Shown here piece after piece: positions 1,501 through 60,010 of a DNA stretch of 64,000 nt (positions within the stretch are counted from its first letter, which is position 1; every line of letters starts with the position of its first letter). The position numbers and the translations under genes were made by a program. The notes under the pieces were generated by a model. That model was not told the origin of the DNA, ran no database searches, and saw nothing but the letters and a program-made list of their open reading frames with translations. Origin of the DNA: Eledone cirrhosa (Eukaryota); the NCBI GenBank assembly GCA_964016885.1, contig OZ024752.1:2976001-3040000 (forward strand). The letters run 5' to 3'.

Positions 1501-2267
1501 ACGAATCATTAAGGAATGTTCTGCATTCAGATGCACCTGTTGGAAAGCATTAGACGACGGGTAATTTACGGAGTTTGGAAATCTAAAAACACCTGTCATG
1601 AGAAACTCCAGTGTAAAAACTCTCATTATTTATCTTTAATAGAATGAACATTTAAACTCAACTCGGTAATCAGTACCCTTTCATCTCAGCAATCGAATCA
1701 TACGGATACGCACACACCTACACACACATACCCCTACACACACACAAATACACACACATATATATATATTACTAAAACAGAGAATGTATGTTTGTCTATC
1801 TGTCTGTCTGTCCAATCACTAAAACTCGAGAACCACCCAACAGAGCTGTTTCAAATTTTACACATGTAATACTTATGGTCCCCTCCGTTTTTTGAGCAAA
1901 AACGATTTCAAATTTTCAATGCCCTAGGGACTGCATTAGGCGATTTAGCTATATCTGTCTATAATTCTTAGTCTTTCTCTTTTCTTCTTCTTTTCGTATC
2001 TTCGATGCATGTGCTTATATGACAGTTTCCCATTTCTTTACACAGTCCTTTGCATTATTATTAAATTCTGCAAGATCTTTTAAGCTGTACTGGTTGGGTA
2101 GTAGAGGGCAAATAAGGTAATCATTCTCTTTTTAGATAGATACATAGATATAACGTCGCGCCTTTATACTATCTGATGTCTGCATTACGTCATTATGACA
2201 CGATCAATGTGTGTGTGTATATATGTATATACAGTGTATATATATATATATATATATTATTATTATG

Positions 2268-2440
2268 CCAGGGAACGTCTTCACGAACCAACGTATCGTC
2301 TTCCTGTTTTGCTTCGTTTGCAAACTTTTTTCGAAATATTTACATCTGCGTTCACAGAATGATTTTTTTAGTTTCAGAACATCCCGTTAAGTGTTAAAGC
2401 ATCGATTCGTGTCTTAAACTTTAATCTGTTATTTTAATAT
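2268..2440 (+). mobile_element. Family A PLE-terminus-like fragment with decayed HHR-like fold
   Basis: Matches 59630-59800 (gccagggaacgtct...gcgttcacaga...gtttcagaa.atccc.ttaag...cttaaact.taatctgttattt). Confidence 0.7.
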
Positions 2441-2447
2441 ATATATA

Positions 2448-2557
2448 TTTCGTTTCTGAATTCGTTTAGCAAGATTCTTTATCTGAAAACGTGCGTTGAA
2501 ACCGATATTGTTATACTTTGGGAGGGTCATGTGGCCAATAAGAAACACTCGCACCAG

Positions 2558-3329: not shown

Positions 3330-3625
3330 ATACCTGAGAATTCTTAGAGGTTAGAAATTATTTAAAGAATGTCCAACTTTTCTTGTGTTGGGCAGAAACT
3401 GTATAATAATCATGCTCGTTTTAGAATTGTAGCATTGCAAAATTTTCTTGACATTGCTAGTGTGATATGCTTCAGTGCATAAGCAGTATGTTTCTACGTC
3501 ATAAACTGGCTCAGTGAAGCTAAATTTTCTTGCAGCAATATCTTCATGGTCAGATGTCAGTTTATTCTAGCAGTTAAATCACTCTCACATGAAATGTGAT
3601 TAATGTCAATTCCAGCTTCCTATGA
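3330..3625 (-). pseudogene. Possible degenerate PHD-finger coding remnant, probably transposon-derived
   Basis: Minus-strand translation with a frameshift: EAGIDINHISCESDLTAR / KLTSDHEDIAARKFSFTEPVYDVETYCLCTEAYHTSNVKKILQCYNS. YCLC..Y....LQC resembles the start of a PHD finger, but later Cys/His residues are lost. Confidence 0.3.
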
Positions 3626-3936
3626 GAATGAAGCAAGTAAATTAATTTGTATCCATGTGTAAGGATACAGAATCGTTGCATGCCACGCTACGTCCTATCA
3701 CGACTCACCATTCTAGTAGTGAATTTTGATCTGCTGGTGTGCTATAACTGTGCATTAAACATTTTATTTATCACTATTTCACTTAAGAAGCCGCCTGGAA
3801 ATTAGTAATTGCGGACACAGAATAACATTTTTCTTGATGTTGTTTTTATATAACCCCACGTCTGCTGTAACCGCAGAGACACATAGGACGTAGGTAGTTC
3901 CACCGGGAGTCTTCCCAATGCACTTGTCCGAGTAGT

Positions 3937-13139: not shown

Positions 13140-15177
13140 AAGCAGCAAGGGAGGTGCTAATGGTTTCCCACCTGGCCACCACAAGGAAATGCTATCCACC
13201 CTCTCCGCCGAGGCCGGGCGCCACCTTCTGAGTGCAATTGTGGCACTCGCCAATAGGCTCATCCATGGCGCCCTGGACCCTAAACGACCGAGTCCTCTCA
13301 TTTTTGGCTAGCCTGACCGCTCGCAGGAAGAAATAGCGTGGCATACGCCACATCGCTGTGGGCAATGTTCCGGAGGCTGGCTGCTAAGGTTGTTCTCAGG
13401 TCCATAGCAACTGAACTGGGTGAGGAGTTCAGTCCGGCGCAACTGGGTGTCGGCGTGTCCGGTGGCAGTGAGGGGGCCGCACATGCAACCGGGCAGTTCT
13501 TCAACAGCTTCCCACGGTCCTGTTGTCAAGCTTGATATGAGGAATGCCTTCAACAGCATACGCGGGGATCATCTGCTCGAAGCCTGCCTCAGCCGAGTCC
13601 GCTCTGCCTACCTGCTACCTACCTGTCATATGGAGACCCGATAATGCTCCTTGCTGCTGATACGGTCTTAACTTCGGCCACTGGGCTCTAACAGGGGGAC
13701 CCCTTGGGCTCTCTCCTGTTTTTACTTGGTATGGACCACATATCCCGGAGTATCACGCCTCTTCTCAACGTTTGTTACCCGCATGATGCTACGTTGAGAG
13801 TGTCTGTCAGGAATTAAAATTGGTGGTTCCTGTCTGCCGGGAATCGGCCTGAAGTCAACTCACCCAAGTCGGAGGGGTTAAATGTCAGCCACGATGCTGA
13901 GAGATTTGCAGCCCCCATTCGTACGTGTGGTCCATTCACCCACCAGGTACAGGTGACCCCCAAATAGCATGTTCTCATCCTCGGGTCCCCGATCCACACG
14001 CCGGCCATCCGCTCTACCCTCAGGTCCAAGTTCCAGCAACTTAAGACCCTCACGAGCCGACTGTGCTTGATTGACAGCAACCCAGCACTTTTCCGGTTGA
14101 GGAACTGCTTCGCAATCACGAAGCTCATGTATGCCCTACGCAGCGCTCCATGCTACAAGCACGCATCTCTCCACACTGACCTCGACACTTGTATCCAAGT
14201 AGCAGCCGGGGAATTATGCAACGACATGTTTGACGACATTGGATGGAAACAGGCCACTTTAACTGTCAGATATGGTGGCCTTGGCCTCCGGTCCCCGATC
14301 TCGCTAGTTTTGACGGAGTTTCTTTCATCGATAACCTCATGTGACTGGGGAACGCGAAGCCCCATGTGTGACGTGGGAGCGGCTGGGGATTAGCCCAGTA
14401 GACGTCACTCCACCTCCCCCTGCTGACTTCAAGTCCCCCAAAAGCGTTTAGGATGTCATCCAGTGAAGTCTGACCTCAGACAGGCCCACGCGCCACCTCG
14501 ACCAGCACCACGTTACCCGATTTTGTGCGGCCCCCAAACCCCAAATTAATGCCTGGCTCCATGGCTTGCCATCCTTCACGCAGTTGGATAACGACAGCCT
14601 GTGCATTGGCGTTTCCCTGAGGCTTAGATTCCGGATCTGCGAGCCACATAAATGTCGCTGTGGATCCACCATGGACTCTTTCAACATCCACCCGCTTTCC
14701 TGTCTCCACAGTGCCGCCCGACTTCCACGCCATGCTGCCATCCACGCTAGGACGCTGCAGGCTTCCCCCTCCAAGCTCGAGCCGGTGGGGCTGCACCAAG
14801 GGGACGGGAAAAGGCCAGACGGTATGACCATCTTCCCATTCCGTGGTGACAAACCCTTCGTCTGGGATTCCACTTTCTCCTGCTACAACATGGTGCAGTC
14901 TGTGAGTAACCCAGGTTCTATTACACGTTGGGCTGAGGAGGCCCAACTCTCCAGGTACCTGTCGCTCTCCGACAGGTTTGTTGTCGTGCCTTTGGCAGTG
15001 GAGACTGCTGGTGTCATTTGCCCAAGGGCAACCTTCCTACTCACCAGCCACAGGTGTGAGCCTCATGATTTTGAATGGCTCTTCCAGCGCATCTCCCTTG
15101 CCATCGTCTGGGGACACCCCTTCTCAATTATGCCCTCCGAGGGTGTGGGGAGGCCGGCACGCATTTGCTCACCATAC
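13140..15177 (+). mobile_element. CRE-like non-LTR retrotransposon (RT + CCHC + restriction-like endonuclease), 5'-truncated and frameshifted
   Basis: QLGVGVSGGSEGAAHA, VVKLDMRNAFNSIR, QGDPLG, LRNCFAITKLMYALR, GGLGLR, CRCG..HPLSC..RHAA and KRPDGMTIFPF..KPFVWD (PD..D nuclease). Confidence 0.85.
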
Positions 15178-15526: not shown

Positions 15527-16099
15527 AATAAATGGAAATTAAATTACTATAGCATCATATTTATTTCATTATATATATTTCAAGGATACTAAATTATAGT
15601 TTGCTTTCATCAGATAAAATCTATGTATTTAGATCGATATATATACACATATCTCCTATATTCTAATGTTACGAAGTATAGTTATGTTGGTCATATACAA
15701 GATCGTTAGAGGGTAACCATTCTCGTATATATGGTAAAATATATGGATATATACCTATGTATATACCTTATAATCTAATGTTATGGAGACATAAAGAACA
15801 TGTATGTATATTTTTTTTTTGTTAACATAAGTAAACATCATCAACAGAAAAGTAACTCTTATTAATTATAATGTTTTAAAAAAAATTATACTATGTTCTA
15901 AAGGTGATCTTGATATAAATGATATAATATGTTAAGGAATATAGATAAAGGTACTTGTTATGTTGATAGTATATATATATATATGCTAATATCTAAAGGA
16001 ACACATAATTATATTGTTATATATATGCTAAATAAGTGAATCATATATATAGTATAGACAACTATTAATTTATCCATATATATATATTATGAAAATAGT

Positions 16100-17760
16100 T
16101 GGAGATTTTCTGTAAACAAGAGATAAATAACTCATACATATTATTAATAATATATCATGTGTTAGTAATAATATTAAGAATCTCTTCATTTCAAAAATTA
16201 CAAATTTTAGAGATAGAGGAAATAACATATGGTGAGGCGTTTTGGATCTTCTTCCAAGATAGTGAATAATCTATGTTTTTGCTTTTTAGACACCATGTTA
16301 TTTGCGATAGAGAAGTTAAGAATGTTTTATCTATTCGTTTAAATGTATATTTATGGTTATACCAACGTTCCATAAATTTAGATGAAGTCACCCGTATGTA
16401 ATTATACAATTTATCATTAGTTTTAACACTAAATTTCGGTCGAGGCATTTATTATCTAACAGGCAAGAGCGACTGTTCGTACAATTACAACTTCTTATGT
16501 TATTATTTATAATATAGTTCTATTATTAAGGTGTAAATTATTACTATTGCTAATGCTATTATCAATAATAGTATTGTTAGTGCTGGGTGTCATTCCTATT
16601 TGGTTTAATTTCAGATGCCTATTATTAATGTTTTGCTTTTTGGGGGGCTATATTCATAGTTGTTGAGTATGACAGCTTAATAGTGTGTCTATTAAAAAAT
16701 CAGGTAATATGTATGAGTTCTAGGAAAACAGTTATCGAGAGCTCTAAAGAACTGTTGTGATAAACAGGATTTAATTCCTATAGATATTGGTGGAGAGTAC
16801 CAGATTATAGAGCGGGCTCTGGCTTTTCTATTCTCTGTGTTATTTTTGTTTATATTAAGGTTATGCTGGTTTATTTATGTTATTATATGAATTATTTCCT
16901 TTATCATATGGGGCATAATGATCCTTATCTGTGTAATTAATGTTATTATTGTATCCTGATCTGTGTACGGTCTCATTATAGTATTCTGCCTCATTCTGAA
17001 ATATATATTTACTAACGGAGAGTTGGACACTATTAACTATAGCTTTCTGGACGTTTTTGGGTGGTTAGAGTAGAAGCTAACATAGTTTAGGTCTTCATTT
17101 AACTAACAGAATGGATAGTATAGGCCAGAAATATAGATTTAAGGTAACGTCTAGGAAATTAACTATTTTATTATGGTTTTCTCTTTCTAGTTTAAGATCG
17201 TAATTATTAAAGAAGTCAATTATGATGTTCTTTTTTCTTTGTAGTAAGGGCACTATTCCTATGGTTATTTACTATACATCGTCACGATATAAACCTCCGG
17301 AAGTTTTCTATGTATAGAGTTAGGGATGAAAATACCAACAAGGTCTGAAACCTCAGCCCAGTCCGAAGATCACATGATAATATCAACATTTCCAGGTCTA
17401 TCAGCTCTGTACGCCTTCAAACTCTATAGGGGTTTTTTCTCGCCGTTAATATTATGTTTATTTCATTACTTGATATATCTCTATATGTTGGTGCAAAAAT
17501 TAATATTTTGTTAAAAGCATACTGTAATTTAGTACCCTTGAAATATATATAATGAAATAACTATGGAGATATAGTAATATATTTTCCATTTATTACTATT
17601 ATCATTGTTATTATAAGTACTCCAGATAACATTTAACTGTAGAGTGCTTCATATATGTTATGAACATAATTCTGTTGAATACTTATTAATGTATCTTGAC
17701 CAGAATTAATGTGTTTCCGAATCAAATCAGATGGAATATAATTAATTAGTTAATAACACA
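16100..17760 (-). mobile_element. Penelope-like retroelement remnant (RT + GIY-YIG)
   Basis: Minus strand GGLYRDD (17278-17298), KLSYS, CNCTNSRSCL, and ORF 16191-16448 (FMERWYNHKYTF..TSLSQITW.LK..YSLSWK...ASPY...CN), typical of the PLE endonuclease region. Confidence 0.8.
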
Positions 17761-23120: not shown

Positions 23121-23138
23121 GTATATATATATATATAT

Positions 23139-23368
23139 ATATTTATTAAAATAACAGATTAAAGTTTAAGCAAAGAATCGCTGCTTTCACCCTTAACGGG
23201 ATCTTCTGAAGAATTTCAGAAGATCCCGTTAAGGGTGAAAGCAGCGATTCTTTGCTTAAACTTTAATCTGTTATTTTAATAAATATTTGCTCTACGGTTC
23301 TTATATATTTGATATATATTTTCCTTATCGAGCCCTCTTTGGATTTTAGTCTACAATTTTATTATTAT

Positions 23369-23372
<4 letters not shown>
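23139..23372. mobile_element. Family A fragment with a perfect 72-bp foldback (23139-23210 / 23215-23286)
   Basis: The arms are exact reverse complements with a 4-nt spacer (gaat); each contains CAGAAGA-tccc-gttaa-gggt-GAAA. Flanked by (TA)n. Confidence 0.9.
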
Positions 23373-42389: not shown

Positions 42390-44259
42390 GGCTGAGGAGT
42401 TCAGTCCGGTGCAACTGGGTGTCTGCGTGTCCGATGGCTGTGAGGCACATGAACGAAGGCAGTCCTTCAACAGCGGTCCACCGGAACCGGTATCCAGGGA
42501 CTCCAGGCATCGCATTGTCAAGATTGACATGAGGAATGCTTTTACCTGCATACACCAGGACCATGTACACATGTCTTCCTCAGCCGAGCCCCCTCTGCCT
42601 ACCTGTCGTATGGAGCCACGAGCAAGCTCCTTGTTGCTGATACGGTCATACCCTTGGTCAATGGGGTCCAAAAGGCGAATCTTTGTGCCCCCATCATGTT
42701 TGTCCTTGGTATAGACCACATTTCCCGGAGTATAAACCCGTCTCAACGTTTGGTACTTGGAAGGTGCTACGCTGGGAGGGCCTGTAGAGACTGTCTGCCA
42801 TGACCGTCAATCGGTTATTCCTGCCCTGGCGGGAATCGGCCTGCTGGTCAACTCGCCCAAGCCGTAGGTGGTGAATGTCAGCCATGATGCTGATAGCTTT
42901 GCGGCCTCCGTCTCTGACGTGCGGTCCGTTTTCCACTGGGTAAAGGTGACCCCCAAAGAGAATGTCCTCATATTCGTGTCACCGATCCACCCACCAGCCA
43001 TCCACTACACCATCAGGTCTAGGCTCCATCAACTTCAGACTCTCATGAGCCAACTGGACTTGATCGAAGGCCACCCAGCTCTCTTCCCGTTGAGGAACTG
43101 CTTCGCCAAGCCGAAGCCCTTCTACACCCTTCGCAGCGCTCGTTGTTACAGCCACGCTTCTCTCCACGCTGACCTCGATCCGTGTATCCGAGCGGCAGCT
43201 GAGGAGATATGCAACGTCAGGTTTGACGACTTTGTATTTGCAACAGGCCACTTTACATGTCAGACATTGTGGCCTTGGCCTTGGGTCCTCGATCTCTCTG
43301 TCTTTGCCGGCGTTTCTTTCATCGGTAACATCATGCCACGTCCTCCTCAGCAGGGTTCTCCAAAACATAATGGAACCCTTTGTGATCAGCGAACGTGAAG
43401 CCTTCTGAGACATGGGACAGATTGCGATTTAGCCCAGTAGATACCCCTCCCTATCCCCCTACTGACATCAAGTCCCCAGAAGTATTTGTGATGCCATCCA
43501 GTGCAGTCTGACCCTAGACAAGCTCACGTGCCAGCTCGCCCAGCACCGCCTTGCCTGTTTTCGTGCGATCTCCAAACCCCACAGTGGTGCCTGGCTCCCT
43601 GCCTTGCCCTGTTTATCCACTGGCACGCAGCTGGATAACGATAGCCTGCTGATGCGCGTTTCCTTGAGGCTTGGACTCCGGATCTGCGAGCCTCATAAAT
43701 ATCGTTGTGGATCCATCGCGGAATATTTCGGCCTCCACCCGCTTCCCTGCCGCCACATTGCCGGCCGCCTTCTACCGCATGCTGCCCTCAACGAGTTTAT
43801 AAATTATTGCGTAGACGCTGCAGGCTTCCCCTCCCAGCTCGAGCCGGTAGGGCTGGACCGAGGAGACGGCAAAAGGCCAGACGGTATGACCATCTTCCCG
43901 CTCTGCGTTGGCAAACACCTCGTCTGGGATGCCACTTGCAGCGACACTTTCTCCAGCCGCAACCAGGTGCAGTATGCGACTAAGCCAGGTACTGCTGCAC
44001 ATCGGGCTGAGGAGGCCAAACTATCCAATTACCGGTCACTCTCCGAAAGGTTCGTGGCCCTGCCCTTGGCAGTGAAGAATTCTGGTGCCTTTCGCCCTAG
44101 GTCTGCCTCCCTATTCATCAGCTGAACGTCTAAGCCTTGCGAGTTGGAGTGGCTCTTCCAGTACATCTCCCTTATCATATTCCCGTGAAACGCCTTCTCT
44201 ATTCTCTCCGCCGGGGCTGTGGGGAGACCAGCACATGAGACCCAATTTGCTCACCATAC
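42390..44259 (+). mobile_element. Second CRE-like non-LTR retrotransposon copy, 5'-truncated and degenerate
   Basis: QLGVCVSDGCEAH, IVKIDMRNAF, VWYLEGATLGG, LRNCFAKPK, CEPHKYRCG..HPLPC..HAALN and KRPDGMTIFPLCVGKHLVWDATCSDTFS. Shares the 3' end tttgctcaccatac with the 13140-15177 copy. Confidence 0.85.
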
Positions 44260-48906: not shown

Positions 48907-49133
48907 TATGTGTATGTGTGTGTGTGTATCATCAGAATATATACAAAGAGGAATGGAAAAGGGTTTTATATATAAAGATATATATAAACTCGTATAGTAT
49001 ATTTATTATTAGTACAGACTAATATTTTAAGCAACGAATTTCTGCTCTTACCCTTAACAGTTTCAGATGGTCCTGCTTTGGGTGAAATACACATACACGC
49101 ACCCCAAAACACACATGAATATATATATATATA

Positions 49134-58421: not shown

Positions 58422-58424
<3 letters not shown>

Positions 58425-58680
58425 AATAATAATAAGTTTGAAGACTAAAATGCAAAGAGGGCTCGATAAGGATAAATACATATCAAATATATAGGAACCC
58501 TAGAGCAAATAATTATATATAGCCCTCAGTCTTCAAATTACTTATTATTACGCCGCTGAAGCCCTGGAAATACTCTACGCCAATGGCCACATCTTAAACA
58601 AAAAATCTGAGGCAATTTCGGCTTGTGAACATAAATTGCACAAACATTTCCTGCACCTACAACCCCACATTATACCCTAA
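58422..58680. mobile_element. Family A 3' fragment (minus, 58422-58512) next to a PLE GIY-YIG tail (plus, ~58550-58680)
   Basis: gaagactaaaatgcaaagagggctcgataaggataaata; plus-strand AEALEILYANGHILNKKSEAISACEH resembles the PLE LNKRSE..S.C.H motif. Confidence 0.6.
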
Positions 58681-59088
58681 CGGATAGTACGAACTACACG
58701 CGGATAATTTACGTCTTTATGTGGTAGATAAGTATATGTTATGTTCATACCATTACTTATTTGTATAGTTAAGTATATATTTCCTCTGTTTTGTGAAGGT
58801 ACGTATATTTTCTCGTACGTATATTTACTTGTATTTGTTATAGGCGTATATATTATATTATATATACTGCTACATATGTATATGGTTATGTGTATACGTA
58901 AGTTTTGCGTTTGTGTGTGTTTGCGGGTTTGCAAGTATGTAGGGTGTGTGTATATGTGTAATTTGTGTTTTGGTTGACGTGGTTAAGCGAACATATGTGT
59001 ATTTACATGAATGTATGTGTGTGCGCGCGTTATATGCGTATTTATGTGTATATATTTATATACGTTTATATAACTATATGTATACCCG

Positions 59089-59152
<64 letters not shown>

Positions 59153-59380
59153 ATATATGTTTTATGTGTATTTGGTGTATACGTTCGTATGTGTGCGGGT
59201 ACAGGCGTTGCGAGGGATTTTGTATGTGTGCGTACCTATGGCGGGTGTTTTCGTGTATGCTTGTGTATGTACGTATACGGTTGTGTGCATGTATATATTT
59301 AATTATTGTTGATTTCAATAACCTCTGTAATTTATTTACATTATTCTTAACTCTGAAGCCGAGAATCATTCGGTTTCCTC

Positions 59381-59800
59381 AATAGAATTTCAGTCTACGG
59401 TTTCAGTTATACCATTTACGTGGTTTTGTCTTTGCGTGTAATTGGTCTCAACGAAGATAATACCGACATATTATCTTCATTGCTTCCGTTCATTGCCAGG
59501 GAACGTCTCTATGAACCACCTAATAGAATATTAGTCTACGGCTTCATTTATACCATACACGTGGTTTTGTCTTTGCTTGTTCTTACCTATCCAAATAATT
59601 ACGTATTATCTTCGGCTGTTTTCCGTTCTTTGCCAGGGAACGTCTCCACGAACGAAAGCCTCGACTTCCTGTCTTCCTTCTATTGCAACGTTTTTTTAAA
59701 TATATACTTCTGCGTTCACAGATTGATTTTTTTAGTTTCAGAAGATCCTGTTAAGGGTGAAAGCAGCGATTCTTTGCTTAAACTGTAATCTGTTATTTCA
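59381..59800 (+). mobile_element. Longest family A fragment: two ~140-bp tandem units followed by a variant hammerhead
   Basis: aatagaat..agtctacgg.ttca.ttataccat..acgtggttttgtctttgc...ttgccagggaacgtctc occurs twice (59381-59515, 59522-59655), followed by the CAGAAGA fold. Confidence 0.8.
59718..59793 (+). ncRNA. Type I hammerhead-like fold with non-canonical CAGAAGA (U4A) core
   Basis: acagatt..agttt-CAGAAGA-t-cct-gttaa-ggg-t-GAAA-gcag-cgattct-ttgc-t-t-aaact..aatctgt. Stems I, II and III all pair; CUU triplet. Confidence 0.6.
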
Positions 59801-60010
59801 ATATATATATATATGTAAAAAGGAAAAGAAAATGCTGACATTTTTTACCCAGTGAAAAATACTTTAATTAGGAATCAGTATAAATTAGTAATAAGTTTTA
59901 GATTTAAGTTTTTACCAGTTGCGCATTTCTAATGCTTTCAAAAATGATTTTGAGATAGAGCGCTCGTGATGTTTGCTCCAATATGTATATATACATACAT
60001 ATATACTTAC

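Follow-up and report, generated by a model that had tools for sequence, protein, structure and literature searches.

A family of type I hammerhead motifs in the genome of Eledone cirrhosa, carried by what its motifs and structure identify as a Penelope-like retrotransposon, has adenine in place of the uridine at position 4 of the CUGA turn. Since published changes to CUGA lower activity, the best reading of this family, which we hold at roughly even chances from sequence comparison, is that A4 became fixed in the lineage at an early date with no change to the remainder of the fold; the motif would then encode a self-cleaving RNA that is attenuated, either slow or dependent on protein, and not a dead relic. 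Hammerhead descriptor searches require U4, which is regarded as invariant.

Adenine at position 4 of the hammerhead

The motif occupies positions 59734-59784 on the plus strand of the window (the whole 64,000-nt stretch of DNA that was analysed) and has the same layout as the published Hydra-clade hammerheads (PMC8557442). Stem I is formed by AGTTT (59734-59738) and AAACT (59780-59784), the core CAGAAGA lies at 59739-59745 (C3 is 59739), stem II pairs CCT with GGG around a GTTAA loop, and GAAA (59759-59762) is followed by a 5-bp stem III with a 7-nt, non-palindromic loop and a G15.2-C16.2 pair. The predicted scissile bond (59779..59780, plus strand) follows U17 of CUU (U59779). Stems I-III meet in a three-way junction whose stem I is open, as expected of type I, and C3-G8, G5, A6, A9, G12-A14, A15.1-U16.1 and NUH are all present; A at 59740, where CUGA has U4, is the one departure from the hammerhead sequence. 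The initial annotation had described a complete type I topology, and the layout agrees with it, but stem II has only 3 bp because 10.1-11.1 is a U.U mismatch. The outer helix between ACAGATT (59718-59724) and AATCTGT (59787-59793), spanning 59718..59793 on the plus strand, had been read as extending stem I; the pairing sequence is there, but its 5' arm lies upstream of the inferred transcription start, and in a long transcript the extension would be possible in the 3' repeat copy alone.

In searches of the 3.0 Gb assembly, an exact 30-nt pattern gave 17,599 matches with A4, 64 with U4 and 105 with C or G at position 4 (reversed-pattern control, 0), and the same pattern with stem II left free gave 27,309 with A4 and 145 with U4 (controls, 1 and 1); U4 was no commoner than other point changes. 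When copies were picked blind to the ribozyme, using either an upstream anchor or similarity to the ORF, A4 was present in 98 of 98, and in an earlier version of this set in 113 of 114, the lone U4 copy being a locus preselected for U4. From four copies in the window (at 2375, 23217, the inverted 23202-23208 and 59739) A4 had been proposed to be a family trait and not a one-off mutation; the window sequence has A4 in all four, and the genome-wide counts confirm the proposal, with A rather than U as the consensus. A position-4-free descriptor applied to ~570 kb of loci identified other repeated hammerhead families, which have U4; the exceptions were a C4 copy with a U4 sibling and a lone A4 match that resembles chance.

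Searches requiring CUGANGA would miss this family, as anticipated, but A4 is not the sole reason that it was overlooked, since the Rfam hammerhead models had no match at E<=10 for either an A4 copy or a natural U4 copy. The Rfam miss is therefore not diagnostic.

A U4 subfamily, suggested by 794 CUGAAGA-type sites from a looser search, was rejected because 28 of the 30 sites examined were inversion junctions centred on position 4 (21 called by rule, 7 by eye), the remaining two being in-element changes. These junctions centre on a TTC-N-GAA micro-palindrome, the central base of which reads T on one strand. About 700 fold-back palindrome insertions centred on position 4 mimic canonical CUGAAGA in this way (e.g., L206, L211, L212 and window positions 23134-23370); they likely arose when run-off cDNA folded onto itself or when two cDNAs became linked at the 5' end of the RNA.

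The carrier element and the ends of its RNA

The suggestion that the motif spread with a retroelement was borne out: in loci fetched from the genome, the DNA between spaced copies holds a reverse transcriptase (RT)-endonuclease ORF, and the motif sits in both pseudo-LTRs (pLTRs) flanking it. L098, for example, is a pLTR-ORF-pLTR copy with hammerheads at 1024 and 4283 and a single 709-aa ORF containing YRDDG and an endonuclease-like C-terminus. A Pfam scan of the 709-aa protein returned no match, and its assignment as the RT and C-terminal GIY-YIG-type endonuclease of a Penelope-like element is a prediction from motifs and architecture. Penelope-type structure is present in the direct repeats of L098, in inverted pairs and in two 3' ends. 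Features of the Hydra clade are an RWK-like motif, DKT, a CxCx5C linker, CxxC and CxH, the absence of CCHH, and (TA)n insertion (PMC8557442). The 709-aa protein has RWR at 37, DKT at 115, CNCRNRADC at 564, CDLC at 662 and CKH at 690 and lacks CCHH (judged by eye), and copies end in (TA)n and are inserted in TA repeats, as in that clade; by these motifs and the (TA)n insertion the carrier is assigned to the Hydra clade. Stop-free frames of at least 713 codons were found in at least 21 of 71 scored protein matches; the A4 family is therefore young and recently active. The closest protein homologues, P0001 and P0002, were at 57% and 47%, and a metagenome scan for relatives found none. Fragments of other Hydra-like families, at 43-59% protein identity, occur at L227:2607-3017, L478:1-465 and L517:47-163; their hammerheads were not located.

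The 5' ends of copies point to where the RNA begins. The motif opens within TTAGTT (59732..59737, plus strand; TCAGTT in older subfamilies), which we take to match the initiator (Inr) consensus and in which A59734 is both the first base of stem I and the inferred transcription start. Breaks at -2 to +6 were found in 23 of 98 stem-III-anchored copies, seven exactly at A(-2); the tail-anchored set was weaker, with none of 96 breaking exactly at -2 and nine at -1 to +3. Genome-wide, thousands of copies start with the opening base of stem I, mostly with an additional G in front: 2,791 have a base other than T before A(-2), and in the first 100, scored by eye, it was G in 53, A in 26 and C in 21 (p=3e-5 against one third). 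G likewise precedes 19 of 27 true junctions (p=8e-5; 30 loci, from which 3 point mutants were dropped), and no leader upstream is shared by the 27 junctions, which argues against trans-splicing. An extra untemplated 5' G has been ascribed to the cap being reverse-transcribed in L1 and SVA insertions (PMC3287187), and Drosophila Penelope has an Inr and an internal promoter within its pLTR (PMC2377424). By analogy, the extra G likely marks a capped transcription start, which we infer to be the base that opens stem I, with the ATG lying 202 nt downstream. This suggests that the transcription starts of Penelope-like elements can be mapped from DNA alone, through the cap-derived G found where copies join their flanks.

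A similar pile-up of 5' ends was found at the ACAGTT of a second, unrelated Penelope-type family with U4 (38 of 78). This family is abundant (~8,000-9,600 matches; L205-L234 and L461-L530, e.g., L208:1460-1620); its hammerhead has a canonical CUGAAGA core and lies ~40 nt behind the initiator-like pile-up, and its endonuclease CxxC motifs are unlike those of Hydra.

The 3' ends of copies fell at ~+72 in 36 of 67 and at ~+154 in 21 of 67. Both lie downstream of the cut site, indicating that the templates were uncut at that ribozyme. There was no excess of A4 copies starting at the scissile site (174, against 141 and 484 at control positions), but such starts were likewise not enriched in the U4 control family (32, against 25 and 11), so this comparison says nothing on activity.

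Two other roles for A4 were considered and rejected. As a new CAG splice acceptor it gave 276 junction-pattern matches, but each of the 14 loci looked at proved to be a microhomology inversion or a repeat join, and in none of these 14 was the predicted upstream exon present. As a second start site it would account for 1,046 copies without C3, yet a preceding G was seen in only 12 of the first 100. The 3' UTR of L098 contains two perfect GTAAGT donor-like sites (3432-3441 and 3792-3801); for the hammerhead-side acceptors tested, no spliced copies were found.

Conservation of the fold and readings of A4

Older subfamilies are ~75-84% identical to L098 around the motif (~20-25% DNA divergence), and their protein pieces are ~69-85% identical. 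In the first 100 of 162 matches, scored by eye, position 4 was A in 94, G in 4, C in 2 and T in none, and N7 was A in 59, U in 37 and another base in 4. In another old set, for which stem III was the anchor and positions 3-9 were free, 10 of 11 in-element cores had A4 and one had C4 (by eye). The element was also found in part in 18 runs labelled as 15 organisms, coded labels that may include close kin or contamination; organisms B, G and K gave no letter but A at position 4, and N was marginally covered (4 runs examined; run X17, which covered the site near a contig edge only, was left out of the tally). A4 is thus old, being common to diverged subfamilies and at least three other organisms. 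The direction of the change, from U to A, rests on the published Hydra hammerheads. One contig of run X14 (organism K) is ~99% identical over L098:870-1151, yet the run shares 0.12 of the element's words, and this likeness may reflect close kinship, transfer or contamination.

For every column not fixed by the search pattern, we compared the commonest letter in the U7 group (11 copies) with that in 98 young copies. Core and stem columns differed in 0 of 26 cases, loop and N7 columns in 6 of 13 (Fisher p=0.0005) and flank columns in 19 of 103 (p=0.013); the old-subfamily sets comprise few copies (11 and 19), and the pick pattern fixed positions -9 to 10 except 4 and 7. Among young copies alone, variants numbered 0 of 50 against 54 of 562 at an 8% threshold (p=0.016), a deficit that was not significant at 12% or 20% (p=0.064 and 0.39). 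Across subfamilies the stems had no compensatory double changes and were either invariant or varied between C-G and U-G wobble.

Since loops and N7 diverged but core and stems did not, the fold appears to be under selection despite A4, and simple neutral decay is disfavored. In the neutral case, A4 would have hitchhiked in one master copy and the motif would now be decaying freely; fixation would need a single event because copies share ancestry, and no U4 ancestor is left to show the timing. The column comparison argues against this, as does the persistence of A4 through several successive subfamilies, and we consider it very improbable.

It is rather unlikely, though a more serious contender, that the predicted ribozyme is catalytically dead and that its sequence is kept as an internal promoter behind the initiator, as folded RNA bound by the RT, or as both. 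The motif begins at the inferred +1, where Penelope has its internal promoter (PMC2377424), and its bases probably also serve as the promoter and the RT-recognized end, which could explain conservation without catalysis. Single CUGA mutants had low activity in published mutational scanning, where pairwise mutagenesis found no second-site rescue except a C3-G8 swap (PMC9901934), cleavage-dead hammerhead mutants of an anole Penelope-like element insert normally in vitro (PMC11167929), and Naiads spread without canonical hammerheads (PMC8557442). Nevertheless, within the core only N7, the one position free to vary in active hammerheads, differs between subfamilies, and GAAA, U16.1 and H17 are fixed; neither a promoter nor a binding site would have to show this pattern.

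By ViennaRNA, the hammerhead fold is not the minimum free energy structure (-5.5 vs -8.8 kcal/mol), and it is so in neither the A4 nor the U4 version. A4 adds one pair to an alternative UUUCA/UGAAA helix, whose predicted pairing in 51 nt is 0.53 with A4 and 0.05 with U4, shrinking in 70 nt to 0.09 and 0.01. A purine at hammerhead position 4 should, moreover, disrupt the U-turn. This structural background, the in silico stabilization of the off-fold and the lack of rescue in pairwise mutagenesis (PMC9901934) all weigh against the idea that A4 is a natural variant with full activity, in which tertiary contacts or the protein of the element make up for the loss. Such full compensation would accord with conservation of the catalytic pattern across ~25-30% protein divergence, with the anole hammerhead, which cleaves only with protein (PMC11167929), and with the argument of Perreault et al. 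that outside contacts offset core variants (PMC3088659); we regard it as improbable.

An attenuated ribozyme, our preferred reading, would fit the following scheme. The capped RNA would open with the ribozyme, starting at the first base of stem I, and cleavage would strip the template of its cap and internal promoter sequence, while new copies would be made from RNA uncut at the copied ribozyme. A4 is predicted to break the CUGA U-turn and to favor the UUUCA/UGAAA helix, hiding the core, and because copies derive from uncut RNA, a slower ribozyme would leave more usable template. We tentatively suggest, at less than even confidence, that the purine-4 hammerhead still cleaves and was selected as a damped switch on the first 51 nt of the capped RNA, setting how much RNA is left whole for translation and copying. 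In that case the family would be the first U4A ribozyme lineage from nature, and would offer a natural test of the reason for hammerheads in Penelope elements.

The closest known systems are the Hydra-clade hammerheads (PMC8557442), which share type I topology, a pLTR site, TA-repeat insertion and a short stem II. All 26 Hydra hammerhead rows listed in File S2 of Craig et al. 2021 have CUGA, and the descriptor used there required CUGANGA (PMC8557442); the A4 family differs in having CAGA, the 7-nt non-palindromic loop III and G15.2-C16.2. Many of those families, e.g., Hydra-1_aJap, have T/T flanking stem II, as here, so the U.U mismatch at 10.1/11.1 is ordinary and A4 is the departure. The motif strings of the A4 family are absent from that supplement (PMC8557442). 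The min-HHRs of metazoan Penelope-like elements (Cervera & de la Pena 2014, PMC4209133) likewise occur in both flanking repeats with many solo and inverted copies, and are often weak in vitro. The core variant described there is U3-A8, whereas position 4 is changed here, and the A4 family has the full 5-bp stem III hairpin, unlike min-HHRs, so that dimerization is not obviously needed.

A natural change at position 4 together with a U10.1-U11.1 mismatch is shared with a viroid hammerhead (Perreault et al. 2011, PMC3088659), in which U4C keeps the viroid infectious and the U.U mismatch is tolerated; function is lowered there, not necessarily abolished. That change is to a pyrimidine, whereas A is a purine and, unlike U4C, has become fixed across genomic copies numbering tens of thousands. 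The text of that paper does not mention U4A (PMC3088659). PAc Poseidon of Anolis (Frangieh et al. 2024, PMC11167929), for which cleavage is dispensable for insertion in vitro, resembles the A4 family in having two internal RT start points that give the tail and an uncut RNA template, but its hammerhead has a canonical core and overlaps the ORF start, whereas that of the A4 family lies 150-200 nt upstream, at the inferred +1. We found no report of a natural U4A hammerhead in the searchable literature on core variants, Penelope-like elements and cephalopods, although an earlier report is possible; in the accessible portions of PMC11014351, PMC4176186, PMC6765202, PMC6155905 and bioRxiv 10.64898/2026.07.22.740005, position 4 is not addressed. 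The A4 lineage at this copy number is a natural experiment on whether cleavage is needed for Penelope-type retrotransposition, for which natural U4 back-mutant copies, e.g., L035, exist as controls, and it suggests that elements scored as lacking hammerheads may hide position-4 variants.

Copies and neighboring repeats in the window

The four window copies had been taken together as one family. The hammerhead at 59739 belongs to a 5'-truncated 1.3-kb element copy (58551..59813, plus strand; 81-83% to L098, 74% identity by tblastn) comprising the last 42 ORF codons (58552-58677), a 3' UTR/pLTR split by a (TA)n tract, the hammerhead and a terminal (TA)n. At its 5' end lies an inverted 3'-tail fragment (58424..58516, minus strand), a typical Penelope inverted segment. 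The twins at 23202 and 23217 form an inverted pair of short copies joined at the hammerhead start (23134..23370; minus arm 23134-23210, plus arm 23214-23370 with a long tail); they begin at T0/T1 and lack most of the 5' strand of stem I. The copy at 2375 (2267..2448, plus strand) retains A4 but is decayed, with CAGAACA (G8C) and GUUAAA (G12U). By sequence comparison, a fragment of an older subfamily, with a stem III loop of the AAATTC type, lies at 48941..49058 on the minus strand.

Other repeats also occur in the window. A canonical CUGAUGA hammerhead of another repeat family (15560-15621, minus strand) has stem I TTTTAT/ATGAAA and a short palindromic stem III, and a decayed, distant Penelope-like ORF (16092-17384, minus strand) is 27-34% identical to the family protein. 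Two non-LTR retrotransposon fragments (13418-15177 and 42390-44259), 72% identical to each other, contain a GDGKRPDG motif, similar to a restriction-like endonuclease.
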